NCBI GenBank assembly: GCA_903822525.1
Contig: CAIJPI010000042.1
Coordinates: forward strand, 10,621-74,620
Origin: an uncultured Bacteroidales bacterium
GTDB taxonomy: Bacteria > Bacteroidota > Bacteroidia > Bacteroidales > UBA4417
Length of the DNA stretch: 64,000 bases
Direction of reading: 5' to 3'
The translations under genes and the position numbers were made by a program. A model generated the notes under the pieces. It searched no databases. It was not told where the DNA came from and saw only the letters and a list, made by a program, of their open reading frames with translations. Below are positions 30,405 to 48,100 of the stretch, piece by piece (positions within the stretch are counted from its first letter, which is position 1; each line of letters opens with the position of its first letter).

Positions 30405-30435
30405 AAAAGGCTATTCTTTGGAGTAGCCTTTTTTT
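30405..30435. terminator. Bidirectional rho-independent terminator between rpoD and acr3
   Basis: AAAAGGCTATTC-TTTG-GAGTAGCCTTTTTTT: a 9-bp stem flanked by A and T runs, between convergent genes. Confidence 0.7.
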
Positions 30436-31507
30436 ATGCGAAGTATTTCTTTTTGAAATAAAATGCCACACTAACCAATCCAATCATCACCGGGACTTCA
30501 ACTAACGGGCCAATAACGGCTGCAAAAGCTTCACCGGAATTCATTCCGAAAATTGCAATGGCAACAGCTATAGCCAGTTCGAAATTGTTACTGGCGGCTG
30601 TAAACGACAGTGTAACGGATTGCCCATAGTTTGCGCCTACTTTCATGCTCATAAAAAATGATATTACAAACATTACCACAAAATATATCAGCAATGGTAT
30701 AGCTATCATCACAACATCGAGCGGGATCTTAATAATATATTCTCCTTTCAAAGAGAACATTACAACTATGGTAAATAAGAGCGCAATCAACGTTATTGGG
30801 CTGATTCTGGGAATAAATTTGGTATGATACCATTCTTTGCTCTTAACCCGGATTAGTATGTAACGTGTCAGAAATCCGGCAATAAAAGGTATTCCCAGGT
30901 AAATGAAAACACTCTCAGCAATCTGGCCGATAGTTATAGATTCGACGGCATTGCTGGTCGGTATTCCAAACCATCCGGGGAGAACGGCAATAAAAAAATA
31001 AGCGTAGACGGAGAAAAACAGTACCTGGAAAATACTGTTGAAGGCAACCAGCCCTGCTGCATACTGAGTGTCACCTTTTGCAAGATCGTTCCATACTATG
31101 ACCATGGCAATGCAACGTGCTAGCCCTATCATAATAATTCCATACATGTAGGGGAGATTTGCGTTGTTCTCTCCGGGAAATATTTTGAACACTGTAATGG
31201 CAAGGGCAAACATAAGTACTGGGCCGATAATCCAGTTTTGTACCAACGAAAGCAATAGTACTTTCCAATTGCTGAATACGTCGCCTAACTCTTCGTATTT
31301 TACTTTAGCCAATGGGGGGTACATCATCAGTATCAAACCAATGGCAATTGGAATATTCGTAGTGCTTTCCGGTGATGTTTTAAGTGATTCCCAGAATCGG
31401 GCAATGACAGGGAACAAGTAGCCTGATAAAACGCCAATAGCCATGGCAAGGAAAATCCAAAGTGTTAGATAACGATCGAGAAATTTCAAACGGGGTTGAG
31501 ATGGCAT
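30434..31507 (-). CDS. acr3: ACR3 family arsenite efflux transporter
   Basis: 357 aa with the N-terminus [20 protein letters not shown] and a polytopic BART-superfamily pattern. It is the last gene of the ars operon. Confidence 0.88.
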
Positions 31508-31547
31508 AGTGCTTGGTTTAAAGTTTAAGAGTAGGTTTTCTGTCGTT

Positions 31548-32246
31548 TTACAAAAAATAGACTGTTATAAAGTAAGATCCGGTGAGGATAAATAGCATTG
31601 CCACTATTCGCCTGAACCACACTTCGAAATACTTGATCTTGTTATAGGTTTTGCCAATACCACCAATACTGAATGCCAGCAGGTACGCTAACAGAATTAC
31701 CGGCAAGCCAGTGGCAATGGCAAAATCAGGTAGTAACAGTAGCCCGGCAGATTGCGATAAAACCATAGGCATTAGCATTCCAAAGTATAAAACTCCGCTG
31801 TATGGGCAAAAAGCAAGGGCAAGGATCAATCCAAGAAAAAAAGCGCCCCATCCGTGCCCAAATTTTACTTTATCAGCAAAGCGTTGCAGGATATTACCCG
31901 ATAAAGCAGGTATTCTGAAGAAATCAAGCATGAATATCCCTATAACAATCAGCAAAGGTCCTATCCATTTTTCACCATTTGCCTGTATGGCCCTGCTAAT
32001 ATGAAACTTACTGGCTCCGAAGAAAATAACTGATCCCAGCAAGGTATATGTAAGTGTCCTTCCAAGTGTATAATACAGCCCGTTCAGGAAAACTGTCTTC
32101 CGGTTCTGAACATCCTTGCTGATATATGCTAATGCCGTAATATTAGTAGCCAGTGGACATGGGCTGATGGCAGTCATTAAACCCAGCAGGAAGGCCGTAA
32201 AAAAAGGAAAAGTGCTCTGGTCAATGAGGTTCTGAAGAAAATCCAT
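31548..32246 (-). CDS. CcdA/DsbD-family membrane thiol-disulfide transporter (the family sometimes labelled ArsG)
   Basis: A 6-TM protein with the two conserved membrane cysteines (AISPCPLA and LAFCPYSG). Confidence 0.75.
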
Positions 32247-32257
32247 GGTAATGTCGG

Positions 32258-32656
32258 TTATTTTAAGTTTTTCTCAATCTCAGCTTTTAATCCGCTGATA
32301 AATTTCTCTGCCTGGTTACGTGAATAGCTGAATGCAAAGTTTGTGAAGTCGATAGTGCTTTCCTTTTTGCCATTTATGCTGGTTAGAAAAAGGGATGAGC
32401 CTTCGGCTTCATACTTCTCAACCATATTTATGTTTTTAGTGTCTTCAACATTCAGAACCTGAAAAGAAATTGTGCCATCTTTCAACTGCTTGGCGAAATA
32501 AGTATTGAGTGTTTTTTTTGTGTTATCTTCTATTGAAATGCATGTCGGACACCGCCGTTCCGAATGAAAGTAAATAATTTTCAGTTTGGTCTGTTTCTGG
32601 GCGAAAACCGCAGCAGTTGCGAGAAACAGTATTATAAATAAAAAGCTCTTTTTCAT
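32258..32656 (-). CDS. Secreted thioredoxin-fold protein with CPTC motif (the family sometimes labelled ArsF)
   Basis: Signal peptide plus SERRCPTCISIE. Length is 132 aa. Confidence 0.65.
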   Translation of the reverse strand: MKKSFLFIILFLATAAVFAQKQTKLKIIYFHSERRCPTCISIEDNTKKTLNTYFAKQLKDGTISFQVLNVEDTKNINMVEKYEAEGSSLFLTSINGKKESTIDFTNFAFSYSRNQAEKFISGLKAEIEKNLK

Positions 32657-32672
32657 AATAAGGATTTTTAGA

Positions 32673-32909
32673 TCAGGGTTTTGTAAGCAGTTCTTTAATT
32701 TCTTTTACGGAAGGTACTCTGCCATATAGCAGCACTTTTTCATCTACAACAAGCGCAGGGGTTCGCATAATACCATAACCCATAATTTTGGTTATATCTT
32801 CCTCTTTAACCACTGTGGCTTCAATGTTAAGTTCTGCAACGGCTTCGCGTGTGGCTTTTTCGAGGTTACGGCAATTGGAGCAACCGGTTCCCAGTATTTT
32901 GATTTCCAT
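32673..32909 (-). CDS. Small thioredoxin-like redox-active disulfide protein
   Basis: 78 aa; MEIKILGTGCSNCRNLE contains a CxxC motif. Confidence 0.8.
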   Translation of the reverse strand: MEIKILGTGCSNCRNLEKATREAVAELNIEATVVKEEDITKIMGYGIMRTPALVVDEKVLLYGRVPSVKEIKELLTKP

Positions 32910-32947
32910 TTTGTAAAGGTTTTTAATAGTTTAGATTATGAAAAATG

Positions 32948-33991
32948 TCAGAATATAAAGTTAAACAAGAATCCGACAAGTATAATACCTGTACCCACAA
33001 CCCCAATAAAGGTAAAAATAAGGGGCAATTTAAGCACTTTACGCAGTATGATCATTTCAGGTAGCGATAATCCTATCACCGACATCATAAAAGCTAATGC
33101 GGTTCCAAGGGCTGCTCCTTTTTCAATCAAAGCTGAAACTATTGGTATTATTCCTGCAGCATTTGAATACAGCGGTATACCTATCAGAACAGAGAGAGGC
33201 ACTGAATACCAGGCCGATTTACCCATAAAGGCAGCAAGAAAATCCTCCGGAACATATCCATGAACTCCTGCACCGACGCCAATTCCAATAAGAATGTAAA
33301 TCCAGACTTTCCCGACAATTTCTTTAACAGCTTCAAATCCGCGGTTCACCCGGTCATGAAGGCTCAGCTTTTCATCTTCAGGGTGCTGACCTGTTTTCAC
33401 GGTATAAACCCAGTCTTCGACCCATTTCTCCAGGTGTAGCTTCCCGATTACCCACCCTGCTGATATGGCTATTATTAATCCTGTTACAACATATATCAGC
33501 GCCGTTTTCCAGCCGAACAAGCCGAAAAGCAGAACAATAGCAACCTCATTTATCATAGGTGCTGCTATCAGAAAGGAGAATGTTACTCCCAACGGTATTC
33601 CCGATTCAATAAATCCAAGGAAAAGCGGTATTGCCGAGCAGGAGCAAAATGGTGTTACAATTCCCAACGATGCAGCCATTACATTTCCTGTAAAAAGCGA
33701 TTTTCCTTCCAGAGCCTTGCGTGTGCGTTCAGGCGAAAAATAAGTGCGTATAATGCCAACAATAAAAATAATAAGTGTTAGTAAAAGCAAGACTTTGGGC
33801 ACTTCAAAAATAAAGAACCTCATTGCTTCGGTAAAGTGCTTTCCTGCAGGCATGCCAAGAATATTTAATACCAACTCATTGGAGAACCAGCTCAGGTTGT
33901 AATATAGGATTACCCATAAAGGAAGCAGCAGGACAGGGGCATACTTTCTGACATTGCCGATATTTATTAGTGGCTTTCTGTTATCCATCAC
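32948..33991 (-). CDS. arsP: Two-domain permease (ArsP-type organoarsenical permease family)
   Basis: Polytopic protein with the TPFCSCSAIPL cysteine-pair motif typical of this permease family. It overlaps the arsR stop. Confidence 0.75.
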   Translation of the reverse strand: MMDNRKPLINIGNVRKYAPVLLLPLWVILYYNLSWFSNELVLNILGMPAGKHFTEAMRFFIFEVPKVLLLLTLIIFIVGIIRTYFSPERTRKALEGKSLFTGNVMAASLGIVTPFCSCSAIPLFLGFIESGIPLGVTFSFLIAAPMINEVAIVLLFGLFGWKTALIYVVTGLIIAISAGWVIGKLHLEKWVEDWVYTVKTGQHPEDEKLSLHDRVNRGFEAVKEIVGKVWIYILIGIGVGAGVHGYVPEDFLAAFMGKSAWYSVPLSVLIGIPLYSNAAGIIPIVSALIEKGAALGTALAFMMSVIGLSLPEMIILRKVLKLPLIFTFIGVVGTGIILVGFLFNFIF

Positions 33992-34304
33992 AAATTATTT
34001 TTTGAACTGATTTCTCAGAAAGAAAAGTATCAATAAGTTGTTTCGCAATCAACCAGTTTTCCTTGTTGATACAATACTTAATAAATGGAGGATTAATTTC
34101 ACCCTGTATCAGTCCAGCCTGCTTAAGTTCCTTCAGATGCTGGGAGAGAGTGGATAGTGCGATAGGGAATTCGTCAGCAATATTGCTGCTGTAACAGCAA
34201 TCCTGCTTTGAAAGGATTTCGAGTATTTTTATTCGTGCAGGGTGCCCGAGTGCTTTAGCAAAACGTGCCAGTTTAACCTGATCTTCAGTATAGGGTGTTT
34301 TCAA
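33981..34304 (-). CDS. arsR: ArsR/SmtB family transcriptional regulator
   Basis: 107 aa; FAKALGHPARIKILEIL...CCYSSNIADEF...LSQHLKELKQAGL (winged HTH with a metal/metalloid-binding CC pair). Confidence 0.88.
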   Translation of the reverse strand: MKTPYTEDQVKLARFAKALGHPARIKILEILSKQDCCYSSNIADEFPIALSTLSQHLKELKQAGLIQGEINPPFIKYCINKENWLIAKQLIDTFLSEKSVQKIICDG

Positions 34305-34456
34305 TCTTCATTTAGTATTTCGCAAAAATACGAAATATAATTATATCCATTATTTTTTATCGATTTAAATATTTTTTTATTGATTAGTACGCAGCAAAGG
34401 TGATTCTGGAGCTCTTCAGGCTTAATAAATGGAAAAAATGTATATAAATGCAACAG

Positions 34457-34475
34457 GTGTATAAAAAATATACAC
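34457..34475. promoter_or_regulatory. Perfect inverted repeat GTGTATA-N5-TATACAC plus additional GTGTA half-sites (candidate activator or ArsR site)
   Basis: GTGTATAAAAAATATACAC lies about 150 nt upstream of the sigma54-like promoter and about 150 nt upstream of arsR. GTGTAT and GTGTAA recur at about 34512 and 34529. Confidence 0.35.
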
Positions 34476-34620
34476 ACTCATTTAATGGACTGAACAACAA
34501 TCGTTTGCATTGTGTATTCTGAAGAGGTGTGTAATTATTCAACATATCTATTGTTTATTTATTAAACACATAAATTTGTAATAAACAGAATATCAAACAG
34601 ATACGATTCGTTTTATGCTT

Positions 34621-34636
34621 TGGCACTGTAATTGAA
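34621..34636 (+). promoter_or_regulatory. Candidate sigma54 (-24/-12) promoter
   Basis: TGGCACTGTAATTGAA compared with consensus TGGCAC-N5-TTGCA: the -24 element is exact, spacing is exact, and -12 reads TTGA instead of TTGC. It ends 35 nt before the ATG at 34672. An NtrC-type activator is encoded 4.5 kb downstream. Confidence 0.5.
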
Positions 34637-34671
34637 TAGCTAAATGTAAAGGAATTGAAAATCCAAAGATC

Positions 34672-36357
34672 ATGAAAACAAAACAATTATTACCCGTCGT
34701 AATTATGCTGCTAGCCCTGAGCAGCAAACTAAGCAGTCAGGAAATTACTGCTAAAAATGGGGAAGAGCAACAAAGCATTCCAGCCATACAGTGCACTCCC
34801 GACCTGTATCAATTGAGTTCAAACTGGGCCAGTGTTTACAACAGTCGAAATCCTGAGTCCAAAATCAGGATCGAAAATGTGGCCGAAAATAAAACCGGTT
34901 CAGGAATGGGTGAAACGATAAGTATCATTAAAGCTGGTAATACTGATGAATTGACTAATGAAAAGAACTGGAAAATAGTAGTAGGAAGGAATGTTATTGT
35001 TCCTGTTATAAATACTGAAAATCCGTTTATGAGCGATATTCTGCTCAGAGGTGTTTCATCCAAACGGTTTTCTCAGTTTTTCAATAATCCCGATAAGGAG
35101 TTTTGGGGAACTCTGCTTCCAGGCCAGCAGAAGGCTCCTGTGCATATTTATATGGTTAACGATGAATCCGTCAAAACAGCAGTGGCTGAATTCCTGGGGA
35201 CAAAAAATCTGCCACTTACGGGAATTTCGTTTGTAACAAAAGAAGAAATTGTCAGTGCTGTTAAGCTGGATCCATATGCTGTAGGGTTCTGCAACCTTGT
35301 TGATGTATTGGATGTGGACACCCGCAGCCTTGCTGAAAATATCCGATTACTGCCCGTTGATAAAAATAGCAACGGTACTATCGATTATATGGAAGACATA
35401 TATAGTGATGCAAATACATTTCTGAGAGGTGTGTGGATTGGTAAGTATCCCAAAACACTGTATACTAATATTTATGCGGTAAGTAAAGTTCAACCTGTAA
35501 ATGAAGCTGAGCTCAGTTATTTAAAATGGATACTGAATGATGGTCAGCAATATCTGAATAAAAATGGATATTGCGATCTCGCCGGCAGCGAAAGTCAATC
35601 GCAACTTGATAAAATTAATACAACAGTTGTAAGTATTCCAACAACTACAGCAAAATCATCTGTTGTTGGAATTTTATTGCTCATCCTGGGAATAGTTATA
35701 TCAGTAGGTGTTATCACCTTTAAGATTATCCGTGCCTACCGGAATCAGGAGAGTATAATTCCCGATTTCAGTATTCAGTCAGCAGGATTCGACGAGAATA
35801 CTGTTGCTGTGCCTGCCGGACTTTATTTTGATAAAACTCACACATGGGCATTTATGGAAAAAGATGGCGATGTAACAATAGGGTTAGATGATTTTCTGCA
35901 ACATATTACAGGTCCGATAAATCGTATCGTGATGAAGAATCAGGGCGAAAGGATCAAAAAAGGTGATCTGCTCTTCACTATTATCCAGAATGGAAAGCAG
36001 CTAAATCTCTACTCTCCTGTTTCAGGAATTATAAGAAAACAAAATGATCTGCTTACCAAAGACTCGTCATATCTGAACACGGCTCCTTACTCAGAAGGAT
36101 GGGTATACCAGATAGAGCCCGGCAACTGGCATAAAGAAATACAGTTTATGGATATGGCCATGCAATACAGGAAATGGTTGAATACCGAATTCTCAAGAGT
36201 AAAAGATTTTCTTGCAGCCACCTTAAAGCCTGACAGCCTGCAATATTCGCATGTAGTTCTTCAGGATGGGGGTGTGTTAAAGGAAGGTATTCTGAATGAT
36301 TTCGGTCCCGAAGTATGGGACGACTTCCAGACGAATTTTCTGGACATATACAAATAG
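34672..36357 (+). CDS. Fusion protein: signal peptide + PstS-like periplasmic binding domain + TM helix + cytoplasmic glycine-cleavage-H-fold domain
   Basis: N-terminal signal MKTKQLLPVVIMLLALSS. PBP-like stretches (VVGRNVIVPVINTENP, DPYAVGFCN, LKWILNDGQQYL). TM helix VVGILLLILGIVISVGVITFKII followed by RAYR. C-terminal YFDKTHTWAF...VTIGLDDFLQHITG...KKGDLLFTIIQNGKQLNLYSPVSG...PYSEGWVYQIEP aligns collinearly with GcvH. Confidence 0.6.
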   Translation: MKTKQLLPVVIMLLALSSKLSSQEITAKNGEEQQSIPAIQCTPDLYQLSSNWASVYNSRNPESKIRIENVAENKTGSGMGETISIIKAGNTDELTNEKNWKIVVGRNVIVPVINTENPFMSDILLRGVSSKRFSQFFNNPDKEFWGTLLPGQQKAPVHIYMVNDESVKTAVAEFLGTKNLPLTGISFVTKEEIVSAVKLDPYAVGFCNLVDVLDVDTRSLAENIRLLPVDKNSNGTIDYMEDIYSDANTFLRGVWIGKYPKTLYTNIYAVSKVQPVNEAELSYLKWILNDGQQYLNKNGYCDLAGSESQSQLDKINTTVVSIPTTTAKSSVVGILLLILGIVISVGVITFKIIRAYRNQESIIPDFSIQSAGFDENTVAVPAGLYFDKTHTWAFMEKDGDVTIGLDDFLQHITGPINRIVMKNQGERIKKGDLLFTIIQNGKQLNLYSPVSGIIRKQNDLLTKDSSYLNTAPYSEGWVYQIEPGNWHKEIQFMDMAMQYRKWLNTEFSRVKDFLAATLKPDSLQYSHVVLQDGGVLKEGILNDFGPEVWDDFQTNFLDIYK

Positions 36358-36408
36358 TCAACAATTCAATAACACATAATATTAGGTTTATCAAAAAAAA
36401 ATAAGATC

Positions 36409-37278
36409 ATGGATTTACATCGTCGTGATTTCTTTAAAGTACTTGGCGCAACCGGAATTACTCTGGCAGTTGGAAAAGAACTGAACGCAGCTCCCAAATC
36501 GAAAAACGAAATGGAATTCCACGGAGTTCTATACGATTCAGCCCGTTGCACAGGCTGTCGAGGCTGCGAATATGATTGCGCCGAGGCTAATAATTTACCT
36601 GAGCCTATTCCAACAAAACAAATTAAGGGCTTACGAAAGACGGATGAAGCCAGAAGGACCGTTGTGAATGAATTCAACACATCGAAAGGTAAAGTATACT
36701 CTAAAATGCAGTGTATGCATTGCAATGAGCCTGCCTGTGCATCCGCATGTCTTACACAGGCAATGAGTAAAACAAAAGATGGTCCTGTGATATGGAGAGG
36801 CGACAAATGTATGGGATGCAGGTACTGCATGGTTTCATGCCCATTTGATATGCCAAAGTTCGAATACCATAGTCCGAATCCGAAGATTCAAAAATGCACC
36901 ATGTGTTTTGATACCAGGGTGCAAAAAGGTGAATTACCTGCTTGTGTCGAAAACTGCCCTAATGAAGCACTTACTTTTGGTTCACGCAGGGAGTTGATAC
37001 AGGAAGCACGACGAAGAATTTATGAGAAACCAGATCTGTATTTTGATCAGATATATGGTGAACATGAAGCCGGCGGAACCTGCTGGCTCTATATTTCGCC
37101 TGTGCCATTCAGCGAAATAGGGATGAATACAAGCATCCAAAAGGCTTCTTATCCTGAATTGACAAAAGGATTTCTATATACAGTGCCAAGTGTTTTTGTG
37201 CTGGTGCCAGCACTTTTACTTGGCGTACAACAAGCAACAAAAAAGGAAAATTCAACAACAGACATTGAAAATGAATAA
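36409..37278 (+). CDS. Tat-exported 4x[4Fe-4S] ferredoxin-type subunit (HybA/NrfC/DsrO-like) with C-terminal membrane anchor
   Basis: Twin-arginine signal HRRDFFKVLGA. Four Cys clusters (CTGCRGCEYDC, CMHCNEPACASAC, CMGCRYCMVSCP, CTMC...CVENCP). C-terminal hydrophobic helix VPSVFVLVPALLLGV. Confidence 0.85.
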   Translation: MDLHRRDFFKVLGATGITLAVGKELNAAPKSKNEMEFHGVLYDSARCTGCRGCEYDCAEANNLPEPIPTKQIKGLRKTDEARRTVVNEFNTSKGKVYSKMQCMHCNEPACASACLTQAMSKTKDGPVIWRGDKCMGCRYCMVSCPFDMPKFEYHSPNPKIQKCTMCFDTRVQKGELPACVENCPNEALTFGSRRELIQEARRRIYEKPDLYFDQIYGEHEAGGTCWLYISPVPFSEIGMNTSIQKASYPELTKGFLYTVPSVFVLVPALLLGVQQATKKENSTTDIENE

Positions 37279-38536
37279 GGGTCCTATGATTGCAACAGAT
37301 AACGACGGGCAACCCATCTGGAGGTTTTTGCTCAGGGAATTTAAACCAAAAGGCAAAATTCTTACGCCTTTTAATATTATCTCAGTTCCTATCATCATTC
37401 TGGGAGTCATTCTGATTGGTTTCCGTTTCTGGAAAGGGATAGGTGCTATAACAAATCTTTCACAGGAAATACCATGGGGCCTGTGGATAGGATTTGATGT
37501 GGTAACCGGTGTAGCCTTTGCCGGAGGGGCCTATGTAATAACCTTTATGGTCTATATTCTGAATATGCATAAATACCATTCTATAGTAAGGGTCACCGTT
37601 TTAAACGGATTCCTTGCTTACTTGTTTTATGCAGGCGCTTTATTGCTTGACCTTGGGCGTCCGTGGAATGTGATTAATCCTATAATAGGAAATAATTTTG
37701 GCGTAAGTTCGGTATTGTTTCTTGTTGCCTGGCACTTCCTGCTATATATGATAGCACAGCTTATTGAGTTTTCGCCGGCAATTGCTGAATGGCTTGGAGC
37801 CCGGCGTGCCCATAAAATTCTTTCAGGCATGACCCTCGCTGCTGTTATTTTTGGGATAACCTTATCCATGCTCCATCAATCAGGCTTGGGAGCCCTTTAT
37901 CTTATGGCTAAAGAAAAGATACATCCGCTCTGGTATTCAGAGTTTATCCCTGTGATGTTTTTTGTATCCAGTATTTTTGCCGGACTTTCGATGGTGATAT
38001 TTGAAGGGTCTATCAGCCACAAAGTGTTTTCAGATCAGATTAGCACCAAAAGCCATCAGTCGCAACGTGGAATCATTCACGGACTGGCAAAAATATGTAC
38101 AGGAACCCTGTTTGCCTACTTCTTCCTTCAAATGCTGGTTTTTATTCATGGAAAACACTGGGATCTGATCAATACACCTATGGGTTACTGGTACCTGGTT
38201 GAGATGATCGGTTTTGTACTTCTTCCGATGATGCTGTTCTTTTACAGCTATCGAACTAATAGCATCTTACTAATAAGAGTTGCTGCTATCCTGACTATGA
38301 TAGGCGTAGTTTTGAACAGGTTAAATGTTACTATTATTGGATTCAGATGGGATATGCCGGTGCGGTATGTACCATCGTGGATGGAAATAGTGGTTACCCT
38401 GACTGTATTATTCACAGAAATCTGGATTTTCAGATGGGTGATTAACCGCATGCCAGTATTAAGGGAATCCCCAAATTGGGTAAATGAAGAAAATAAAAGT
38501 CAAACCGCTCTTGCAGATGATCATCGGAGAGCATAA
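37271..38536 (+). CDS. NrfD/PsrC/DsrP-family polytopic membrane (quinone-interacting) subunit
   Basis: The ATG at 37271 overlaps the upstream stop (ATGAATAA). The 421-aa protein has at least 8 predicted TM helices and an N-terminal pattern (ITPFNIISVPIIILG...WGLWIGFDVVTGVAFAGG) like NrfD-type anchors. The track start at 37190 would overlap the upstream gene by 89 nt. Confidence 0.8.
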   Translation: MNKGPMIATDNDGQPIWRFLLREFKPKGKILTPFNIISVPIIILGVILIGFRFWKGIGAITNLSQEIPWGLWIGFDVVTGVAFAGGAYVITFMVYILNMHKYHSIVRVTVLNGFLAYLFYAGALLLDLGRPWNVINPIIGNNFGVSSVLFLVAWHFLLYMIAQLIEFSPAIAEWLGARRAHKILSGMTLAAVIFGITLSMLHQSGLGALYLMAKEKIHPLWYSEFIPVMFFVSSIFAGLSMVIFEGSISHKVFSDQISTKSHQSQRGIIHGLAKICTGTLFAYFFLQMLVFIHGKHWDLINTPMGYWYLVEMIGFVLLPMMLFFYSYRTNSILLIRVAAILTMIGVVLNRLNVTIIGFRWDMPVRYVPSWMEIVVTLTVLFTEIWIFRWVINRMPVLRESPNWVNEENKSQTALADDHRRA

Positions 38537-38547
38537 AAATTAACAAA

Positions 38548-39264
38548 ATGGATGGATTCAGTTATTACAACATTTTCGATACAAAAGGAATAGAATATCT
38601 AGCGATCATTGCATTCCTGTTGTTGCTCATTCCTTTCTGGCTTGCATTGAACAGGCAATCCGAAATTAAAGCACAGATCCGAAAAGTTATAGGCGTATTG
38701 TCAGCGGCTGTTTTAAAAATTCCGCAAGGTATTTTTTACAGTAAAAATCATACCTGGGCTTATCTTGAAAGGTCGGGAATTGCCAAAGTAGGTCTTGACG
38801 ATCTGTTGATGCATATTACAGGCGAGGTAGATGTTCGCCATCTCAAGAATCCGGGCGATAGCATCCGTAAAGGTGATTTAATTGCCCATATAGAGCAGGA
38901 TGGAAAATTGCTGAATATTTATTCACCTATTTCCGGAAAGATTCTTGGTTCAAATTCACTTTTAGAATCAAGACAAGAATTGTTGAAGCAGGATCCTTAT
39001 GGAAAAGGCTGGATTTATGATGTTAAACCATCAAAATGGGTAACTGAAATGCCTTCATGTTACCTTGCTGAAGATGCGACTGATTGGATGAAGAAAGAAC
39101 TGGAAAGGTATAAAGATTTTGTAGCAGTAAGCAGCGGGAAATATAATTCGGAAAATTCGATGCCGGTTTTACAGGATGGAGGCGAATTATCTGATAATTC
39201 TCTTTCGGCTCTTCCCGGTGAAAGCTGGAAGGATTTTCAGGACCAATTTTTGACCCCTGAATAA
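38548..39264 (+). CDS. Membrane-anchored glycine-cleavage-H-fold protein (paralog of the C-terminal half of 34672-36357)
   Basis: N-terminal TM helix (LAIIAFLLLLIPFWLAL), then YSKNHTWAYL...KVGLDDLLMHITG...RKGDLIAHIEQDGKLLNIYSPISG...PYGKGWIYDVKP. It shares the C-terminal tail KDF...VLQDGG...W.DFQ..FL with the 561-aa protein. Confidence 0.7.
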   Translation: MDGFSYYNIFDTKGIEYLAIIAFLLLLIPFWLALNRQSEIKAQIRKVIGVLSAAVLKIPQGIFYSKNHTWAYLERSGIAKVGLDDLLMHITGEVDVRHLKNPGDSIRKGDLIAHIEQDGKLLNIYSPISGKILGSNSLLESRQELLKQDPYGKGWIYDVKPSKWVTEMPSCYLAEDATDWMKKELERYKDFVAVSSGKYNSENSMPVLQDGGELSDNSLSALPGESWKDFQDQFLTPE

Positions 39265-39352
39265 ACCTGAAAAAATTTGAGCCTTTTCTAAAAACCGGGT
39301 TTCAGTATTCTGTCTGTTTGGCAGTCCAGATATAAATTTTCACGAAAAATAT

Positions 39353-39386
39353 AAAAAAAACCGGTTATAAATCGCCGGTTTTTTTT
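39353..39386. terminator. Rho-independent terminator candidate after the four-gene operon
   Basis: A8-CCGG-TTATAAATCG-CCGG-T8 hairpin lies 89 nt after the stop at 39264. Confidence 0.55.
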
Positions 39387-39469
39387 ATATTGCGGTTATA
39401 TATATACATGATCGAATATATGCGGGTTTTAAATAGGTCATAATACTGTACTTTAAAAATAAAGGCAAT

Positions 39470-41140
39470 ATGGTTTTATTAAAGACATCAGCAACTAAAA
39501 AGAGCCTCGGCAGTTTATTCAGAGGCAAATACTTGAAATTTGGCCGGTCAATTTATGGTCGTGTTGTATTGATTATCACTATATTATCGGTTTTCCTTTT
39601 TGTTTCCTTTGGTATAATTTTCAAATCGGTTTACGAACAATACCTTAATACCGTTATTCTTCAGAGCGGAAACAATGTAGGTTCACTGGTCGAAGGAGCT
39701 TTGTATCATTCGATGCTCGAAAACGACGAGAGTGCCTTGCAGAATACCCTCGATGTAATTCATACTTTGCCCGGCATTGAGGATGTAAATATGTACGATG
39801 CCTTCGACAGTCTTGTATATTCATCATTCCCTTCCGATACCGAAGGAAACATCAATCCTAATTGCAGAAATTGCCATAAAAATCTTGGTGTTATGTTTCC
39901 AAGGAAGGAAAAAGCGTATAAAATTATTTCTGCGGATAATGAATGTAAGATGAATAAAATCGATCATGGTGAAAGACACCTTTTAATCCGGTCGCCTATT
40001 CTGAATTCGAAATCATGTTACGAAAGTTCCTGCCATGCCCACACTCCGAAAGAAGATGTTCTGGGGTCGCTGGTTATAAAGGTTCCCTTGAAGGATTTTG
40101 ATGCAGCTGTTGAAAAATCTTCACTGGAGTTCTATTTTCTTGCAATTTTAACAACTCTGCTGCTGGCATCATTTTTAATTTTATTTACCCGCAGGGAAAT
40201 TAAAAACCCACTCAATCAACTTATAAAAGCGAGTATAGCTGTTGCAAATGGCGACAAGAGCACCCGGGTTGAAATTAAAAGCAATCAACTCGACGATATG
40301 CGTATGGTGTCAGTGGCATTTAATGATATGCTCGATAATCTGCAGACGGCCACTACAGAATTGGAGAACTGGTCGCAACAACTTGAATATAAAGTACAGA
40401 AAAAATCGGAAGAACTGGGAACGGCTCAGAGTGAGTTAATCCATATTGAACGCTTGGCCTCTCTTGGAAAATTGTCATCCTCGGTGGCACACGAAATTAA
40501 TAATCCTTTGTCGGGAATCCTGGTATACACAAAACTGGTTCATAAACTATTAAGTAATCAGGAACTTACGGAGGACAGGAAGGAATTGATGCTTAAGCAT
40601 CTGAAGATGATTGAATCCGAAACAAAGCGCTGCGGGGAAATAGTAAAAGGATTACTCGACTTCTCGAAAAAAGATCAGGAGGACTTTGAGCCTGTTCACT
40701 TACATGAGATTTTGCATGCAACCTATGACCTGATGTCACATCCGATTAAGATAGCAAATATCAGTTTTCTGACTGATTTTACTGCAAAGTCAGATTTGAT
40801 TTACTGCAGTCCAAACCAGATTAAACAAGCCTGTGTAGCCATTCTGGTTAATTCAACCGAGGCTGTTACCGAAAATGGCGAAATCCTTGTACGAACCTCA
40901 AATCCAGATTCCGACAGCGTCAGGTTTGATATTATTGATAATGGAATAGGTATCTCTGCTGAGGATATTCCGCATATTTTCGAACCTTTCTTTTCAACAA
41001 AACAGCAAGCCAGAGGCATTGGACTTGGTTTGCCGATAGTTCATGGTATCATTCAAAGCCATAAAGGAAAAATACAGGTGAAATCGGAATCCGGACTTGG
41101 TACTACCATTTCGATAACCTTACCATTAATAAGAAATTAA
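39470..41140 (+). CDS. Sensor histidine kinase with periplasmic domain carrying haem-c attachment motifs, HAMP, HisKA, HATPase
   Basis: Two TM helices bracket a roughly 170-aa periplasmic region containing CRNCH (39863-39877) and CYESSCH (40016-40036). HAMP-like LNQLIKASIAVANGD...FNDMLDNL. H-box SSVAHEINNPL. G-boxes DNGIGI...GIGLGL. Confidence 0.85.
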   Translation: MVLLKTSATKKSLGSLFRGKYLKFGRSIYGRVVLIITILSVFLFVSFGIIFKSVYEQYLNTVILQSGNNVGSLVEGALYHSMLENDESALQNTLDVIHTLPGIEDVNMYDAFDSLVYSSFPSDTEGNINPNCRNCHKNLGVMFPRKEKAYKIISADNECKMNKIDHGERHLLIRSPILNSKSCYESSCHAHTPKEDVLGSLVIKVPLKDFDAAVEKSSLEFYFLAILTTLLLASFLILFTRREIKNPLNQLIKASIAVANGDKSTRVEIKSNQLDDMRMVSVAFNDMLDNLQTATTELENWSQQLEYKVQKKSEELGTAQSELIHIERLASLGKLSSSVAHEINNPLSGILVYTKLVHKLLSNQELTEDRKELMLKHLKMIESETKRCGEIVKGLLDFSKKDQEDFEPVHLHEILHATYDLMSHPIKIANISFLTDFTAKSDLIYCSPNQIKQACVAILVNSTEAVTENGEILVRTSNPDSDSVRFDIIDNGIGISAEDIPHIFEPFFSTKQQARGIGLGLPIVHGIIQSHKGKIQVKSESGLGTTISITLPLIRN

Positions 41141-41152
41141 AGCTTTTAAACA

Positions 41153-42487
41153 ATGGAGAAGAAGATATCCATATTAGTTGTTGATGATGAAGAATCTGTT
41201 AGAGATTCACTCAGCCTTTGGTTTGTCGAAGATGGTTACAGGGTCGAATGTGCTGAAAATGCTAAGAAAGCCTTGTCAATTCTTGAATCTGATACATTCG
41301 ATATTATCCTTACTGATTTGAAAATGCCGGGCATGGATGGCCTGGAAATGCTCAGAAGGATAAAGGTATTAAATAAGGATTCGATAATTATTGTTATGAC
41401 AGCTTTTGCAACTGTTGATACTGCTGTTAAAGCACTGAAAGACGGAGCTTTTGACTATGTAACCAAGCCGTTTGACCCCGATGATCTTTCACATCTTATC
41501 AGGAATGCAACCAGGCAGATTACACTTGCCCAGGAGAATGAGACTTTAAAGAAAAGAGTTGATTCATTGGAAAGTGTTGAGGATCTGATCGGAAAAAGCG
41601 AAGCTATAAAAAGGGTTCTGAAGGAGGTTGAAAGTGTGGCTCCAACCAATTCGTCAGTTATTATAACCGGCGAAAGTGGTACAGGCAAAGAGCTTGTTGC
41701 CAGGGCTATACATGCCAATTCGCTGAGAAAATTTTATCCGCTGGTAAGTGTGCATTGCGGTGCTTTAACCGAAAGTTTATTGGAGAGTGAGCTGTTCGGG
41801 CACGAAAAAGGTTCATTTACTGGGGCATTGTATAACCGCAAAGGCAGGTTTGAGATGGCTGACAGTGGAACTATATTCCTGGATGAAATAGCTACAATCT
41901 CAGCAAAGATGCAGGTTGAATTACTTAGGGTTCTCGAAACGAAAAGTTTCATGAGGGTTGGAGGAAATAAGGAAATATCGTCTGATTTCAGGGTGATTTG
42001 TGCAACAAACCGCGATTTAAAAAGTATGGTCGAAAAAGGGACCTTCCGCGAGGATTTGTACTACCGGCTAAATGTGATGAATATTCATGTTCCGCCTTTA
42101 CGCGAGCGTGTGGAAGACATTCCGTTACTGGTCGAATATTTTATCCGGAAATATTGTACTACCATGAACAAGCCAGTCATTACCATTGATCCGGCTGCTT
42201 CAAAGCGTATACTTGCTTACCAGTTTCCGGGAAACATTCGGGAATTGGAGAATATGATTGAACGGGCTATTGTTGTTGGGAATGGTCGGAAAATTGGATT
42301 AGCAGACCTTCCATTTGGTAAGGATGTTATCGAAAGTTCCGTCGAAAGCCTTGAGGATTTTGAAAAGGCATTTATCCTTCAGATCCTTAATAAATATAGC
42401 TGGAATATTTCCCGCACGGCTCAGGCTTTAAAAGTGGATAGGGTGACTCTGTATAATAAGATTAAGAAATACAGCCTGAAGTCATAA
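41153..42487 (+). CDS. Sigma54-dependent response regulator (NtrC family)
   Basis: REC domain (ILVVDDE...DIILTDLKMPGMDG), AAA+ domain (GESGTGKELVARAIH, EKGSFTGAL, FLDEI) and a C-terminal Fis-type HTH (NISRTAQALKVDRVTLYNKIKKY). Confidence 0.92.
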   Translation: MEKKISILVVDDEESVRDSLSLWFVEDGYRVECAENAKKALSILESDTFDIILTDLKMPGMDGLEMLRRIKVLNKDSIIIVMTAFATVDTAVKALKDGAFDYVTKPFDPDDLSHLIRNATRQITLAQENETLKKRVDSLESVEDLIGKSEAIKRVLKEVESVAPTNSSVIITGESGTGKELVARAIHANSLRKFYPLVSVHCGALTESLLESELFGHEKGSFTGALYNRKGRFEMADSGTIFLDEIATISAKMQVELLRVLETKSFMRVGGNKEISSDFRVICATNRDLKSMVEKGTFREDLYYRLNVMNIHVPPLRERVEDIPLLVEYFIRKYCTTMNKPVITIDPAASKRILAYQFPGNIRELENMIERAIVVGNGRKIGLADLPFGKDVIESSVESLEDFEKAFILQILNKYSWNISRTAQALKVDRVTLYNKIKKYSLKS

Positions 42488-43241: not shown

Positions 43242-44981
43242 ATGATTAATCGTATTTCATTACTGTGCCTCTTTCTGGCTTTACTGGCTGGCAGTACCCG
43301 TATTTTCGCATGTACTAATTTTATTATTTCGAAAGGCGCCTCCAGCGATCATTCGGTTATGATCAGCTATGCTGCCGATTCACATACACGGTATGGTGCC
43401 ATATCATTCTATCCGGCCGCTGATCACAAACCGGGTGAAATGTGTGAAGTGTATCATTATGAAAATGGCAAACTACTTGGAAGTATACCTGAAGTGCCTC
43501 ATACTTATTCGGTGGTGCAGTTTATGAACGAATACCAGGTAGCTATTGGGGAAACAACTTTTGGCGGTCTCGACTCATTGAGCAGGCAACCTGGTGCATT
43601 TCTGGATTATGGTTCTTTGATGAAAATTGGTCTGCAACGTTCGAAAACTGCCCGCGAACTGATTAAAGTGATAACTGATCTGGTTGCGCAATATGGTTAT
43701 GCATCAGGAGGTGAATCTTTTTCAGTATCCGATGCCAGCGAAGCCTGGATTCTGGAAATGATCGGGAAAGGCAGATATGAAAAAGGAGCAGTATGGGTTG
43801 CGCGTTTAGTTCCGGATGGTTATGTAAGCGGGCATGCAAACCAGGCCCGGATTACAACTTTCCCTTTTCAGGAAATCAACAACTGGAATGATCAAAAGCA
43901 AACAGTTTACCACTCGTCGGATGTTATCAGTTTTTCAAAGAAATACGGCTTCTATAAGGGTAGTGACGAATCATTCAGTTTTTCGGATGTGTATAATCCT
44001 TTAAATTTTGGAGGTGCCCGTTTCTGCGATGCAAGAGTTTGGTCTTTTTTTAGAAAAATCAATAAAGAAATACGTGAGAATCCTGCTTATACCATGTATG
44101 TAAAGGGTGAGTTTTTACACGACAAGGTTTTTATGGATGGCAGTAAAAATCCAAACAGCTTCGTTTCGAACAGACTTCCATTATGGGTAAAGGCTGATGT
44201 GCCTGTTGACCGGAAACTAGTCATGGCAGGTATGCGCGACCATTATGAGAATACGCCTCTTGATATGCGGAATGATCCTGGGGCAGGACCTTTTAAGCTG
44301 CCTTACCGCTGGCGCCCGATGGAATTTGTAGTTGATAGTGTAATGTATCTGAATGAAAGATCCGTTGCAACTCAGCAAACAGGGTACAGTTTTGTGGCAC
44401 AATCGCGCAGTTGGCTGCCAGCACCTATTGGTGGTATTTTCTGGTTTGGAGTCGATGATGCTGATGGTTGCGTATATGCCCCGATATATTGCGGAGTACG
44501 CGAAATTCCAAAAAGTTATGCTGTCGGAAACGGTTCAATGATCACCTGGTCTGAAACATCGGCTTTCTGGACTTTTAGTATGGTGAATAATTGGGCCTAT
44601 AACCGCTATAACCTTATTCATCCGGAGATTGAAGATTACCAGAAAAAATTAGAAGATCAGTTCACCAGTGAAATTGAAATTATTGATAAACAGGCTGTTG
44701 CTCTCTATACACAAAATTCAGGCTCTGAATATGATTACATTACAGGATATTCAGTATATACTGCAAATAAGTTGGTTAGCGACTGGAAGATATTTTTTCA
44801 ATATCTTTTTATGAAGTACATTGATGGAAATGTGAAGAATTCTGAAGGTCATAAACTTCTCGATAACGGAAATGGAAGAAATATCCCGAAAGCTCCTGTG
44901 CAGCCCGGGTATGGCAAGGAATGGGAGCGTATTATGATACAGGGAACAAACGATAGACTAAAAGTCCCTGATAATAAATAG
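43242..44981 (+). CDS. C69 family dipeptidase
   Basis: The signal peptide ends in FACTNFIISKGAS (N-terminal nucleophile Cys). Length is 579 aa. Confidence 0.75.
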   Translation: MINRISLLCLFLALLAGSTRIFACTNFIISKGASSDHSVMISYAADSHTRYGAISFYPAADHKPGEMCEVYHYENGKLLGSIPEVPHTYSVVQFMNEYQVAIGETTFGGLDSLSRQPGAFLDYGSLMKIGLQRSKTARELIKVITDLVAQYGYASGGESFSVSDASEAWILEMIGKGRYEKGAVWVARLVPDGYVSGHANQARITTFPFQEINNWNDQKQTVYHSSDVISFSKKYGFYKGSDESFSFSDVYNPLNFGGARFCDARVWSFFRKINKEIRENPAYTMYVKGEFLHDKVFMDGSKNPNSFVSNRLPLWVKADVPVDRKLVMAGMRDHYENTPLDMRNDPGAGPFKLPYRWRPMEFVVDSVMYLNERSVATQQTGYSFVAQSRSWLPAPIGGIFWFGVDDADGCVYAPIYCGVREIPKSYAVGNGSMITWSETSAFWTFSMVNNWAYNRYNLIHPEIEDYQKKLEDQFTSEIEIIDKQAVALYTQNSGSEYDYITGYSVYTANKLVSDWKIFFQYLFMKYIDGNVKNSEGHKLLDNGNGRNIPKAPVQPGYGKEWERIMIQGTNDRLKVPDNK

Positions 44982-45100
44982 CCTCGGTTGCTGAAGGTTA
45001 TTTATAATTTGTTTTGTTACGTTTCGATCTGCCTCGTTAAAGTAAAAACAACAAACATGGTTTCCTGTTTCAGGAATGAAAACAGAATTAATACTATGCT

Positions 45101-48100
45101 ATGACAAGAATACTACTGATATATATAATTCTGCTCTTTAACTTTCAGCTTTTAGCTCAGAGCAGTTGGACGCAGCCTGCTAAATTAATCTGGAAGGAAG
45201 ATTTTTCGTCCGGGAAAATTCCGGATGGTTGGGTTAACCAGGCTGTGAACGACAGCAGTATAATTTGGGATTGCACCAATCAGCCTTTTCCCGGATCGTA
45301 TGGCCGCGACCAGCAAGCGCCGCCTATTGCATCGAAAAGCGGTGGATTTCATATGCAGTACGCTCCCGGTGTTAAAGTCGATAAATTCTACCGCAGGTGG
45401 GAGAAAGCTGGGATATGGCCTGATGCTTTTTTTCAGACTTCACCTATCGATTGCTCAAAACGAAGTTCTGTGGTGCTCAAATTCCAGCAGAATTTCATAT
45501 GGAACGACTGGGGTAAAGTGAGAAATGACGGAGGTTTATTTGTTGGAGTGTCCGGTAATGGAGTTTTATGGAAAGAGTATGAAGTCCGAAATGGCATTGG
45601 CAGCGAAGCCGATTGTCAGAATCCGGCTAATGTTGAGTTGAATATTACCGGTACTGCTGCTTTTCAGAAAACAGTGTATGTGAGGTTTTATTGGAAAGGA
45701 ATGTATGCCTGGTATTGGATGATTGACGATATTGAACTTTCCGAAGCCCTCGATGTCGATTTGTCGGCCTCGGCATTGATATCACATCCCCGGTCGGGCA
45801 ATACGTTTACAAATTCCGATATTTTTAAATTTAATGTAGTGAACCTGAGCTCAGGTGCTATTAAAAAGCCATTCGATTCCTATCTGAAGATTGATAACAG
45901 AGCCCCTGTAAAAATTACAACGCCCTTCAGTGAAAAAAATGAGATGCAGGTTCTTGATACTGCTCTGGTAGTTTTTCCTCCGGCTGATCTTACTGATTTC
46001 GGAATTCACAAGATCAGGTTTTATACTTCCTTTCCTGATGATAACCGTAGGGTAAATGACACACTCGACATGGAACTTTTTTCGCAGGCATACGAATTGG
46101 GACCAGTTACCGGGTTTAAAAACAAAGGCAATACTTTTACATTTAACTGCAATCATGCACTTGTGCAAATTGATTTTTACAGGGACGACATTTTCCGGAT
46201 TCAAATGTCGTATAATGGTGAATATACAAATCCTGCCGGTAGTGATATTGTAATTAAACTTCCTTCTGAAAAAGTTAACCTTACATGTATTGAAAAGGAA
46301 GATTATTATCTGATGGTAACATCCGAAACTGCCTTGCGCGCATACAAGAATCCGTTGCGCTTTGCCATGTACAAGCCCGATAATGAAACCTTGGTCTGGG
46401 AGGAGATAAAAGGTCTTACTTACGGTAAAGAAACCGTGCAGTCGTTAAAAAGATCGGAGCACGAATATTTTTATGGAGGAGGCATGCAGAATGGAAGATT
46501 TTCTCATCGGGATAAAACCATTCAGTTGCGTATCGACTGGAACTGGGAGGATGGAGGCGCTCCTAATCCGGCTCCTTTTTACATGAGTACAAATGGTTAT
46601 GGGGTGTTGAGAAATACGTTTGCTCCCGGTGAATATGCTTTTAAGGATACCATAAGGTTGTTGCATTCCGAAACACGATTCGATTGCTTTTACTTTGCAG
46701 GTAAGTCGTTAAAAGATATCCTGAACAGTTACACAGATGTTACAGGAAAGCCTTTCCTCCCGCCACGGTGGGCGTTAGGCATGGGCGATGCAAACTGTTA
46801 TAACCGTGGAGCCTCGAAAGGAAAGAATACGACAGGGTATAATGGTACAACCCCTGAAGTTATCCCTCTGATAGCCGATAAGTATATAGAACATAATATG
46901 CCTCGTGGGTGGATTCTGCCTAACGATGGGTATGGCTGTGGCTATACAAAACTTGATTCCGTAGTTGTCGAACTGCAAAAAAGAGGTTTTCATACCGGAT
47001 TGTGGACCGAGAACGGTGTTGAAAAAATTGCAAAGGAAGTAGGGGAGTATGGCAGTCGATTGTGTAAGCTTGATGTGGCTTGGGTTGGCGAAGGATATAA
47101 GTTCGCAATCGACGGTTGCCGCGCTGCATACGAAGGAATTGAGAATAACAGCAATGCAAGGGGCTTTATCTGGTCAGTGTGTGGATGGGCAGGAACACAG
47201 CGTAATTCGGTGATGTGGACCGGCGATCAGAAAGGAACCTGGGATTATATCCGCTGGCATATTCCAACGGTAATTGGCTCGGGACTCTCCGCCCAGAATT
47301 GTGCAACGGGTGATATAGATGGTATATTTGGAGGAAGTGATAAGACTTTTACACGCGACCTGCAGTGGAAATGTTTTACGCCGGTATTAATGTCAATGTC
47401 GGGATGGGCGCCAAAAGATAAACAGCCTTACGTTTATGGTGAGCCGTATACTTCTATAAACAGGAACTACCTGCAGCTCAAACTGCGTCTTACCCCATAC
47501 ATGTACACTCTATGTAACGAAGCCTGCGAAACAGGTGTTCCGGCAGTCAGAGCACTGGTACTCGAATACCCTGACGACCCGCTTGCTAAAGGGACTGAAA
47601 CGCAGTATGAATTTCTGCTGGGTAAAAATTTCCTGGTGGCACCGGTATACCGGGATGAGTCCATACGCGACAGTATCTATTTGCCGGAAGGTAAATGGTT
47701 TGACTACTGGGACGGATTCGTATACCAGGGGAATACTTTTTTAAACAAGTATCCTTCCCCACTTGATAAACTTCCACTATTCGTCAAGGCGGGTTCTATT
47801 ATCCCAATGTACCAGCAAATGGGTTTTGACAATGAGCGACCGGCCGATACACTGACTCTCGATATATATCCCGGCCCTGATGCCGGATTCGAAATGTTTG
47901 AGGATGAAGGATCCAACCGGGATTACAGGCAGGGTAAATATGCAATTACAAAAATTCAAGCTTACTCAGGAAACAACGGAACTAGGATTAATGATATTAG
48001 CATCTCAGCAGCTAATGGCAGTTTTGAAGGAAAAATACTAAAAAGGACTTATTTAATCCAGATTCATAGTTCAGTTCTTCCTGAACAAATATTAGTGAAA

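Follow-up and report, generated by a model that had tools for sequence, protein, structure and literature searches.

We describe here a seven-gene cluster of an uncultured Bacteroidales bacterium (UBA4417), located on contig CAIJPI010000042.1 of assembly GCA_903822525.1 in the stretch from position 10,621 to position 74,620 (64,000 nt, hereafter the window). The cluster is a real, conserved and previously undescribed variant of the Hmc/Nhc-type NrfD complexes, whose function we can only infer. Its genes, as found in the list of open reading frames (ORFs), all point in the same direction and encode, in order, the proteins A, B, C and D, a sensor histidine kinase (HK), a response regulator (RR) and a peptidase of family M54. 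B and C make up an iron–sulfur (Fe–S)/NrfD core, and this core is bracketed by A and D, two membrane-tethered proteins with the fold of the glycine cleavage H protein (GcvH). An earlier note on this DNA, made from its letters, had proposed such a core between two H-fold proteins; Pfam matches to GCV_H, Fer4_11 and NrfD bear this out, and the first six genes, which the note had reported, were all recovered at the same coordinates in the ORF list. The seventh gene and the paralogy of A and D were absent from it.

That the cluster is a unit is supported by its distribution. When GTDB species, each represented by a single genome, were scanned with a D relative as marker, such a relative was found encoded in at least 518 species genomes. 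The best 80 of these are almost all metagenome-assembled genomes (MAGs) of Bacteroidales/Bacteroidota, and include Lentimicrobiaceae, Prolixibacteraceae, Draconibacterium-, Mariniphaga- and Tangfeifania-like organisms and Salinivirgaceae. With two other genomes they gave 82 genome loci, to which a metagenome scan added about 32 long loci, for a total of about 110. Many of the loci come from stratified lakes and digesters. The order A-B-C-D-HK-RR-M54 was present in the 82 genome loci wherever the contig was long enough, and the metagenome loci have the same order, with one of them (L160) permuted. When the ORFs flanking the 82 genome loci were clustered, no family recurred in more than seven loci. 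A gene order that is kept in about 110 loci while the flanks are unrelated is far beyond chance, and the co-conservation of the A-B-C-D-HK-RR neighbourhood, which the earlier note had named as a check to be made, is thereby borne out. All seven genes, their motifs and the promoter are kept even in a distant locus, L083, from a Bacteroidales MAG of 56% GC content in which D is 37% identical. A search for more divergent clades gave only loci at 40% or less to the divergent query, and their architecture did not differ from that of the others. In the databases the proteins carry the names ‘hypothetical’ or ‘glycine cleavage system H protein’.

Within 8–10 kb on either side of the cluster, these loci have no recurrent partner of the molybdopterin, hydrogenase, multihaem or HdrD-like kind, which extends to the other loci what the earlier note had seen at this one. 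In particular, an HmcE-type cytochrome b and the HmcF HdrD-like subunit are absent from all loci, and no [NiFe] hydrogenase subunit or maturation gene lies beside the cluster in any of them. The available catalogue of NrfD-like systems (PMC8076601) lists Nrf, Psr, ACIII, Dms, Hyd-2, Arr, Ttr, Qrc, Sre, Nhc, Dsr, Mcc, Fqo and Soe; each comes with a partner of the molybdopterin, hydrogenase, multihaem or HdrD type, and subunits with the H-protein fold occur in none (PMC8076601). Genes resembling NhcC are reported in the same work from two Bacteroidetes; they may belong to the family described here. Literature searches, including full text, for a described combination of NrfD with GcvH, of HmcBC with an H protein, or for a membrane-anchored lipoate-binding complex returned nothing relevant, in line with the earlier note, in which the composition had not been recognised as that of a described complex. 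In anaerobic respiration, NrfD-type modules appear time and again as building blocks, and the catalogue of these modules is thought to be largely known (PMC8076601). A widespread version in at least 518 species-level genomes of Bacteroidales from anoxic habitats, with no recognisable catalytic partner and with accessory subunits drawn from a fold that had not been linked earlier to quinone-coupled complexes, is therefore of some general interest.

The Fe–S/NrfD core and its paired H-fold proteins

The protein B, in which Pfam finds Fer4_11, carries an RRDFFK motif for twin-arginine translocation (Tat), a C-terminal transmembrane anchor and 16 cysteines in four cluster motifs, every one of them conserved at 99–100% among 76 orthologues, just as expected from its earlier description as a Tat-signal 4x[4Fe-4S] protein with a C-terminal anchor. 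Its best NCBIfam match is HmcB (331.5 bits, under the cutoff of 420), followed by HybA (223 bits, under the cutoff of 263), and its closest solved relatives are FdnH and PsrB. C matches the Pfam family NrfD (PF03916; 47.5 bits, cutoff 25.8), has ten hydrophobic segments and scores best in NCBIfam against HmcC (395 bits, under the cutoff of 550) and next against HybB (248 bits, under the cutoff of 450); no solved sequence relative of C was found at E ≤ 0.01. At the level of sequence, B is established as a relay of four [4Fe-4S] clusters in the periplasm, exported via Tat and anchored by its tail, and C as a haem-less NrfD-type subunit with ten transmembrane segments, of the kind that binds menaquinone/menaquinol. 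Together with the activator (71–92% identity across loci), C is the most conserved protein of the cluster (mostly 76–89%), as expected of a constrained core subunit, whereas A is the least conserved (35–61%). The ATG of C at 37271 is part of ATGAATAA and overlaps the TAA stop codon of B at 37276–37278; the overlap as such had been noticed earlier, and these details are a small correction to that description. A 154-residue ORF on the minus strand (36366–36830) overlaps gene B in antisense and is most likely spurious, because the sense frame of B is strongly conserved.

For both A and D, the assignment of an H fold held in profile searches, with GCV_H matched at E values of 7.6e-20 (71.5 bits) and 2.4e-20 (73.1 bits), respectively, against a cutoff of 22.2 bits. 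Against the GcvH equivalogs TIGR00527/NF002270 of NCBIfam, the two proteins reach 60–76 bits, well under the cutoffs of 115–117, and Foldseek aligns the C-terminal part of the A model with solved H proteins at a TM-score of about 0.70; identity to solved H proteins is 22–30%. Each protein has one transmembrane helix (at about residues 15–33 in D), after which Lys and Arg are more frequent than before it. From these positive-inside charges and, for A, from the signal peptide and the ectodomain, both H-fold domains are predicted to lie on the cytoplasmic side, where the earlier note had also put them.

A and D are moreover related to each other. An exhaustive search of 1.84 billion representatives gave 295 proteins with E ≤ 1e-30, of which the best 150 are either D-like (about 237 residues) or A-like (about 560 residues). 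The A-like proteins align with D over its whole length (about residues 20–235) at 34–44% identity, D being paralogous to residues 340–560 or thereabouts of the A-type proteins. By this full-length match, the C-terminal half of A is a paralogue of D, and its transmembrane helix, H fold and tail are a duplicate of D. The tail of about 80 residues, common to both, combines the H fold's final strand and helix with a C-terminal extension (W..E..R.KDF ... VLQDGGE ... PE.W.DFQ..F) that is conserved in A and D and absent in GcvH; a profile search of the PDB and member-by-member Pfam scans for relatives of the tail gave noise only. D also shows a conserved peptide at its N-terminus, M.GF.Y.NIF.TKGIEY, for which a periplasmic location is predicted.

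To judge whether the H folds could carry a lipoyl group, GcvH of E. coli was aligned with 32 modules of the D type and 107 of the A type. The core motifs of GcvH are mostly kept, and the hairpin has the same length as that of GcvH in ungapped register. The column of the lipoyl-lysine is, however, occupied by Gly in all A-type and in 67% of the D-type modules, with a Lys at the next position in 98% and 82%, respectively. In the AlphaFold model of A, strands 433–439 and 442–447 are joined by an N440–G441 turn, so that K442 would be the first residue of the returning strand and not the tip of the hairpin. The A-type hairpin reads x-G-K in all but two of 95 representatives, which have Arg, and in several lineages the Lys of the D-type hairpin is replaced by Arg, Gln or His. 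No conserved Cys is present in the H-fold modules. Because of the Gly in the Lys column, the Lys shifted by one position and its replacement in some D proteins, a lipoyl swinging arm is unlikely on sequence grounds, and an obligatory one is argued against most clearly in D. The suggestion in the earlier note of a tethered swinging arm or dithiol carrier is weakened accordingly. The H-fold domains of A and D would rather be degenerate ‘pseudo-H’ modules for protein interaction than lipoyl redox arms.

The ectodomain of A gave no Pfam match in the window's own protein, and in this respect the PstS-like domain first proposed for it was not recovered directly; many A orthologues, on the other hand, match PF12849, and Foldseek matches the N-terminal part of the A model to the phosphate-binding proteins 4pqj, 4jwo and 4gd5 at E values of about 2e-9 (overall range 1e-9 to 1e-7, including 1twy). 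The AlphaFold2 model on which this comparison was made has a moderate mean predicted local distance difference test score (pLDDT) of 64.6, with residues 100–290 at 70–90. A class II periplasmic binding-protein (PBP) fold of the PBP_like_2 type is thus predicted for the ectodomain, by orthologues and model alike. Its best-conserved features are an EF-hand-like loop, D-x-N-x-N-G-x-I-D-x-x-E, at residues 230–241 (window 35359–35394), and the motif RGVWIGKYP that directly follows it. In 106 diverse A-type representatives the loop is 95–100% conserved (D230 at 100% and E241 at 99%, with N232, N234, G235 and D238 between them), and L083, the distant locus, has it too. A Ca2+ site is thereby suggested in preference to one for anions. 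The segments that we take, by inspection, to correspond to the anion loops of PstS read CTPDL and VNDExVK, and are poorly conserved, with acidic residues. By its sequence, the ectodomain is probably not an anion binder and may be read as a docking or structural module instead of a phosphate receptor. A conserved periplasmic disulfide in A was considered and rejected, C41 being only 41% conserved. In five loci (L046, L062, L068, L074 and L092), A lacks the ectodomain and is reduced to 225–243 residues comprising the transmembrane helix, the H fold and the tail, with the sigma54 promoter and its enhancers directly 5′ of it; in the reverse case, the representative P0255 is a D-type protein with a PBP ectodomain. 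The ectodomain therefore appears to be accessory.

Transcription units, regulators and neighbouring genes

The sequence TGGCACTGTAATTGA upstream of A has one mismatch to the sigma54 consensus TGGCAC-N5-TTGC, and exactly one TGGCAY-N5-TTGN site is found about 50 nt 5′ of A in 58 of 63 loci. Across loci the −12 element is mostly TTGA or TTGG and rarely the textbook TTGC, and this may be specific to the sigma54 promoters of the Bacteroidales lineage. When 59 upstream regions were anchored on the −24 element, every one of them contained one to four copies of a 17-bp palindrome, TGT-N11-ACA, with a consensus of about TGTTGAAWWWWWTTCAACA, against a background of 0.09 per 250 nt. The copies cluster at −180/−160 and −95/−70 relative to the −24 element and are kept in L083 despite its 56% GC content; no second cluster of such palindromes occurs elsewhere in the 64-kb window. 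After D, the terminator postulated in the earlier note was found to fold at a minimum free energy of −21.3 kcal/mol (z = −6.0; none of 200 shuffles as stable); a simple hairpin scan had missed it, its loop being longer than 8 nt. The median distance between D and the kinase gene is 191 nt across loci, versus 12 nt between the kinase and regulator genes. The hairpin and these gap lengths indicate two transcription units, a sigma54-dependent A–D operon and a kinase–regulator–M54 operon.

The kinase has the HAMP, HisKA and HATPase_c domains of Pfam and, between its two transmembrane helices (residues 32–50 and 221–239), two haem-c motifs, CXXCH at 132–136 and CX4CH at 183–189. The residues C132, C135, H136, C159, C183, C188, H189 and H191 are conserved in all of 74 orthologues. 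The sensor domain gives only a weak Pfam match, to sCache_4 (E 0.019); its model has a sheet of five strands preceded by a long helix at the N-terminus, and it is best matched in fold, though weakly (E 0.0025 or worse), by extracellular Cache/PAS domains, those of WalK and LuxQ. A recent preprint describes DUF3365 domains as Cache domains with covalently bound haem c that behave as nitric oxide (NO) sensors when fused to signalling modules (PMC12889525, 2026). The kinase sensor is a two-haem-motif analogue of such haem-c Cache sensors that lies outside the DUF3365 family, with haem binding predicted from the motifs. The regulator, matched by Pfam to Sigma54_activat (E 5.7e-70), Response_reg and HTH_8 and carrying GSFTGA in its translation, fits together with the HisKA kinase the composition of NtrC-type sigma54 two-component systems. 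A haem-motif kinase and a sigma54 activator belonging to the cluster itself, both of which had been claimed in the earlier note, are thereby confirmed.

The seventh gene encodes a protein with a Pfam Peptidase_M54 match at E 6.4e-23 (82.2 bits, cutoff 24.4), and the zinc motif HExxHxxGxxHC is present in its translation. It lies 3′ of the regulator gene in nearly all loci with enough sequence, and overlaps the stop codon of the latter in L083. The cluster thus offers a conserved genomic partner for the bacterial archaemetzincins. The features of the cluster in the window are collected in Table 1.

Table 1. Features of the cluster and of its upstream region, with their positions in the window.
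Feature	Position	Strand	Description
Upstream activating sequence (UAS) region	34439..34568	+	Four 17-bp TGT-N11-ACA palindromes, at 34439, 34458, 34528 and 34552
Sigma54-type −24/−12 promoter	34621..34635	+	TGGCACTGTAATTGA; 37 nt 5′ of the ATG of A
Gene A, 561 residues	34672..36357	+	Signal peptide, PstS-fold ectodomain (predicted), transmembrane helix 331–349, GcvH fold 384–504, tail of about 80 residues
Gene B, 289 residues	36409..37278	+	Tat (RRDFFK), tail-anchored 4x[4Fe-4S] subunit, HmcB/HybA type
Gene C, 421 residues	37271..38536	+	NrfD-family quinone-interacting subunit with ten transmembrane segments, HmcC/NhcC/HybB type
Gene D, 238 residues	38548..39264	+	17-residue N-terminal peptide, transmembrane helix, GcvH fold 64–180, tail as in A
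Terminator-like hairpin	39343..39394	+	A- and T-runs; between the A–D unit and the HK–RR–M54 unit
Sensor histidine kinase, 556 residues	39470..41140	+	First transmembrane helix, periplasmic Cache-like domain of about 165 residues, second transmembrane helix, HAMP, HisKA, HATPase_c
NtrC-type response regulator, 444 residues	41153..42487	+	Receiver, sigma54-interaction AAA+ domain (GSFTGA loop), Fis-type helix-turn-helix
Archaemetzincin-like M54 zinc peptidase, 177 residues	42656..43189	+	Pfam Peptidase_M54; HELGHTFGLIHC; without signal peptide

A few loci deviate in their arrangement. In L160 the two units are swapped, HK-RR-M54 preceding A-B-C-D, and are still adjacent. Six metagenome loci (L094, L099, L101, L106, L108 and L147) have an insertion of about 1.8 kb between the kinase and regulator genes, which in L094, the one inspected, holds a 205-residue ORF resembling an outer-membrane beta-barrel. 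In L068, from a MAG labelled Chlorobiota, a secreted cytochrome c of 166 residues with four CXXCH motifs is encoded at 1201–1701, just 5′ of the short A gene. It is a single case, with a terminator of its own and with the sigma54 promoter coming only after it; being a separate transcription unit, it was rejected as a subunit of the module.

In the window, the cluster is preceded by a divergent ars-like cluster on the minus strand (30434–34304), which encodes an ArsR-type regulator, an ArsP_1 permease and an SBF/ACR3-like carrier, as well as a small secreted protein of 132 residues and a DsbD_2 membrane protein. A link of the module to arsenic or oxyanions was rejected, since an ArsR/ArsP/ACR3-like cluster adjoins it in none of the other loci, and the ars-like genes are probably unrelated to it. 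Downstream (43242–50177) follow a Peptidase_C69 gene, found downstream also in some close relatives, and genes for a glycosidase of family GH31 and a GH35 beta-galactosidase, which belong to the usual glycan-degradation repertoire of Bacteroidales.

A possible mechanism and its alternatives

The reading that we tentatively propose, while giving it somewhat less than an even chance, is that the cluster encodes a self-contained, inducible Hmc/Nhc (NrfCD-type) membrane module in which the usual partners have been replaced. By analogy with haem-c Cache sensors, the di-haem Cache kinase would sense a periplasmic redox signal or a diatomic gas (of the NO type) and phosphorylate the NtrC-type activator, which would then bind the TGT-N11-ACA sites and turn on A–D from the sigma54 promoter. 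The four proteins A to D would assemble as one complex, in which B and C could pass electrons between the pool of menaquinone and a partner in the periplasm, not encoded in cis, for which a soluble carrier, a small oxidant or the haems of the kinase itself are candidates. The pseudo-H domains may serve as non-catalytic caps or regulators of the cytoplasmic (N-side) face of C, and the Ca-loop ectodomain of A and the N-terminal peptide of D might dock periplasmically, at the place where Hmc/Nhc carry their cytochrome. The cytoplasmic M54 peptidase, finally, may process or turn over the cytoplasmic domains of A and D.

Several points weigh against this proposal. The hairpin Lys, conserved at 98% in the A type, may nevertheless be a site of covalent modification. 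The H folds, for their part, were given a role by exclusion, because a haem-less NrfD subunit offers them no obvious electron path. On the regulatory side, the binding of the palindromes by the adjacent activator is presumed from adjacency and co-conservation, the profile of DUF3365/Tll0287 gave no match to the kinase sensor even at E ≤ 10, and the model of this sensor has low confidence around the haem motifs. In addition, every carrier of the module that was looked up is a MAG protein.

Another explanation, which we hold to be unlikely, is that A–D form a sensory accessory complex, in which C would read the redox state of menaquinone and B would wire it to the two periplasmic haems of the kinase. 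The ectodomain of A would dock on the Cache domain in the manner of LuxP with LuxQ or TorT with TorS, and the induction of A–D would be a feedback. It would fit this idea that the kinase is the sole periplasmic protein of the cluster with haem motifs and that these motifs are invariant, that the HK/RR unit is never parted from A–D, even when permuted, and that the locus has no catalytic site for a substrate. LuxQ in complex with LuxP is indeed among the fold matches of the sensor model, but these are the weak matches mentioned above, and the PBP ectodomain that would do the docking is absent in some lineages. Moreover, a separate sigma54-dependent unit is the usual sign of a regulated target rather than of an input, a relay of four clusters with a ten-helix membrane subunit would make an expensive sensor, and in the 64 kb searched no further enhancer cluster marks other members of a regulon.

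To us it appears just as unlikely that the module anchors an enzyme encoded in trans, B and C being the HybA/HybB- or NhcB/NhcC-like half that couples a periplasmic hydrogenase, formate dehydrogenase or multihaem cytochrome to quinone, with A and D as small accessory or assembly subunits like NhcD/HmcD. B and C do score best against HmcB and HmcC and next against HybA and HybB, although under the equivalog cutoffs (331 versus 420 and 395 versus 550), and the closest solved relatives of B are beta-subunits that always dock a catalytic alpha-subunit. The gene order mirrors nhcABCD, and the NhcC-like genes of two Bacteroidetes mentioned above (PMC8076601) would agree with such a relationship. No catalytic or cytochrome gene recurs beside the cluster in about 110 loci, however, the cytochrome of L068 having its own terminator, and the possession of its own regulator pair and promoter suggests an autonomous unit. 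In contrast to small anchor peptides, moreover, A and D are large paralogues whose cytoplasmic domains are conserved along their length.

Tethered swinging arms, in which a lipoyl or other acyl group on the hairpin Lys of A and D would act as a dithiol or acyl carrier coupled to the quinone pool through C, are in our view improbable. The domains are clearly derived from GcvH, with most core motifs kept, and the Gly and Lys of the A-type hairpin are conserved at 100% and 98%; lipoate-binding GcvH-like proteins reportedly act as carriers in the sHdr system of sulfur oxidation. Yet the Lys lies one residue past the hairpin tip, with Gly at the tip, and shifting a lipoyl-lysine by one position is said to have abolished lipoylation. 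The replacement of this Lys by Arg, Gln or His in several D-type lineages, the lack of a conserved Cys and of haem in C, and the scores far below the GcvH equivalog cutoffs point in the same direction. No lipoate ligase or synthase gene lies in the cluster, and gcvT, gcvP and lipoylation genes are not linked to it. A more specific version, which must be considered doubtful to the same degree, would have a Gly-Lys hairpin, bearing a lipoyl or another redox-active or acyl group in spite of its shifted Lys, and the haem-less NrfD subunit couple cytoplasmic dithiol or acyl chemistry to menaquinone and to the periplasmic Fe–S wire. If true, the module would represent a class of membrane-spanning redox or energy-coupling complexes not known before, under the control of a di-haem sensor in the periplasm. 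It is hardly credible, lastly, that the genes form no functional unit and that the H-fold proteins are unrelated to B and C, since, although all loci come from one phylum-level group and part of the signal is thus due to inherited synteny, the seven genes remain grouped amid fully shuffled flanks, even at 37% identity of D and 56% GC, with tight spacing, a B/C overlap, a single conserved promoter 5′ of A and B/C always bracketed by the two paralogues.

Finding out what the module does could yield a new electron route or redox-sensing device in abundant uncultured Bacteroidales of freshwater, sediments and digesters. It could also reveal what the H-protein fold may do apart from carrying lipoyl groups, add a second type to the Cache sensors that bear haem and give the first physiological context of bacterial archaemetzincins. 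The conserved promoter and enhancer provide a ready handle for expression studies.

Comparison with known systems

The regulatory part resembles NtrC, ZraSR and AtoSC in having a REC–AAA+–HTH_8 activator, a HAMP–HisKA kinase and a −24/−12 promoter with upstream palindromes. It differs from them in that it stays under every equivalog cutoff, in its periplasmic sensor with two haem motifs and in the −12 element, mostly TTGA/TTGG. With the sCache_heme proteins (DUF3365/Tll0287; PMC12889525) the kinase shares an extracytoplasmic Cache-type sensor, a haem-c motif and a signalling output, and it departs from them by having two motifs, CXXCH and CX4CH, instead of one.

As for the flanking subunits, the ectodomain of A, unlike PstS proteins, is fused via a transmembrane helix to a cytoplasmic domain, carries the EF-hand-like DxNxNGxxDxxE loop, is dispensable in some lineages and is not accompanied by pstCAB genes. 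A and D have the fold and most of the core motifs of GcvH, from which they differ by their tethering to the membrane, by the extra tail of about 80 residues and by the Gly at the column of the lipoyl-lysine.

For the core, HybA/HybB of E. coli hydrogenase 2 are the second-best matches and have the same topology of an Fe–S protein and a membrane subunit with ten transmembrane segments, while the large and small hydrogenase subunits and the maturation genes of that system have no counterpart near the module. The closest likeness is to Nhc/Hmc of Desulfovibrio, which share with it a Tat-exported, tail-anchored 4x[4Fe-4S] subunit and a haem-less NrfD-type subunit with ten transmembrane segments, and whose HmcB and HmcC are the best-scoring named families for B and C, under the equivalog cutoffs. 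The order of a periplasmic protein, an Fe–S protein, an NrfD protein and a small single-pass protein is likewise that of nhcABCD (PMC8076601). The module differs from Hmc/Nhc in doing without the multihaem cytochrome c (HmcA/NhcA), the cytochrome b and the HdrD-like subunit (HmcE/F), and in having both H-protein-fold paralogues and a PstS-like ectodomain, which Hmc/Nhc do not have. Moreover, Hmc/Nhc are found in sulfate reducers, whereas the module occurs in MAGs of fermentative-type Bacteroidales.

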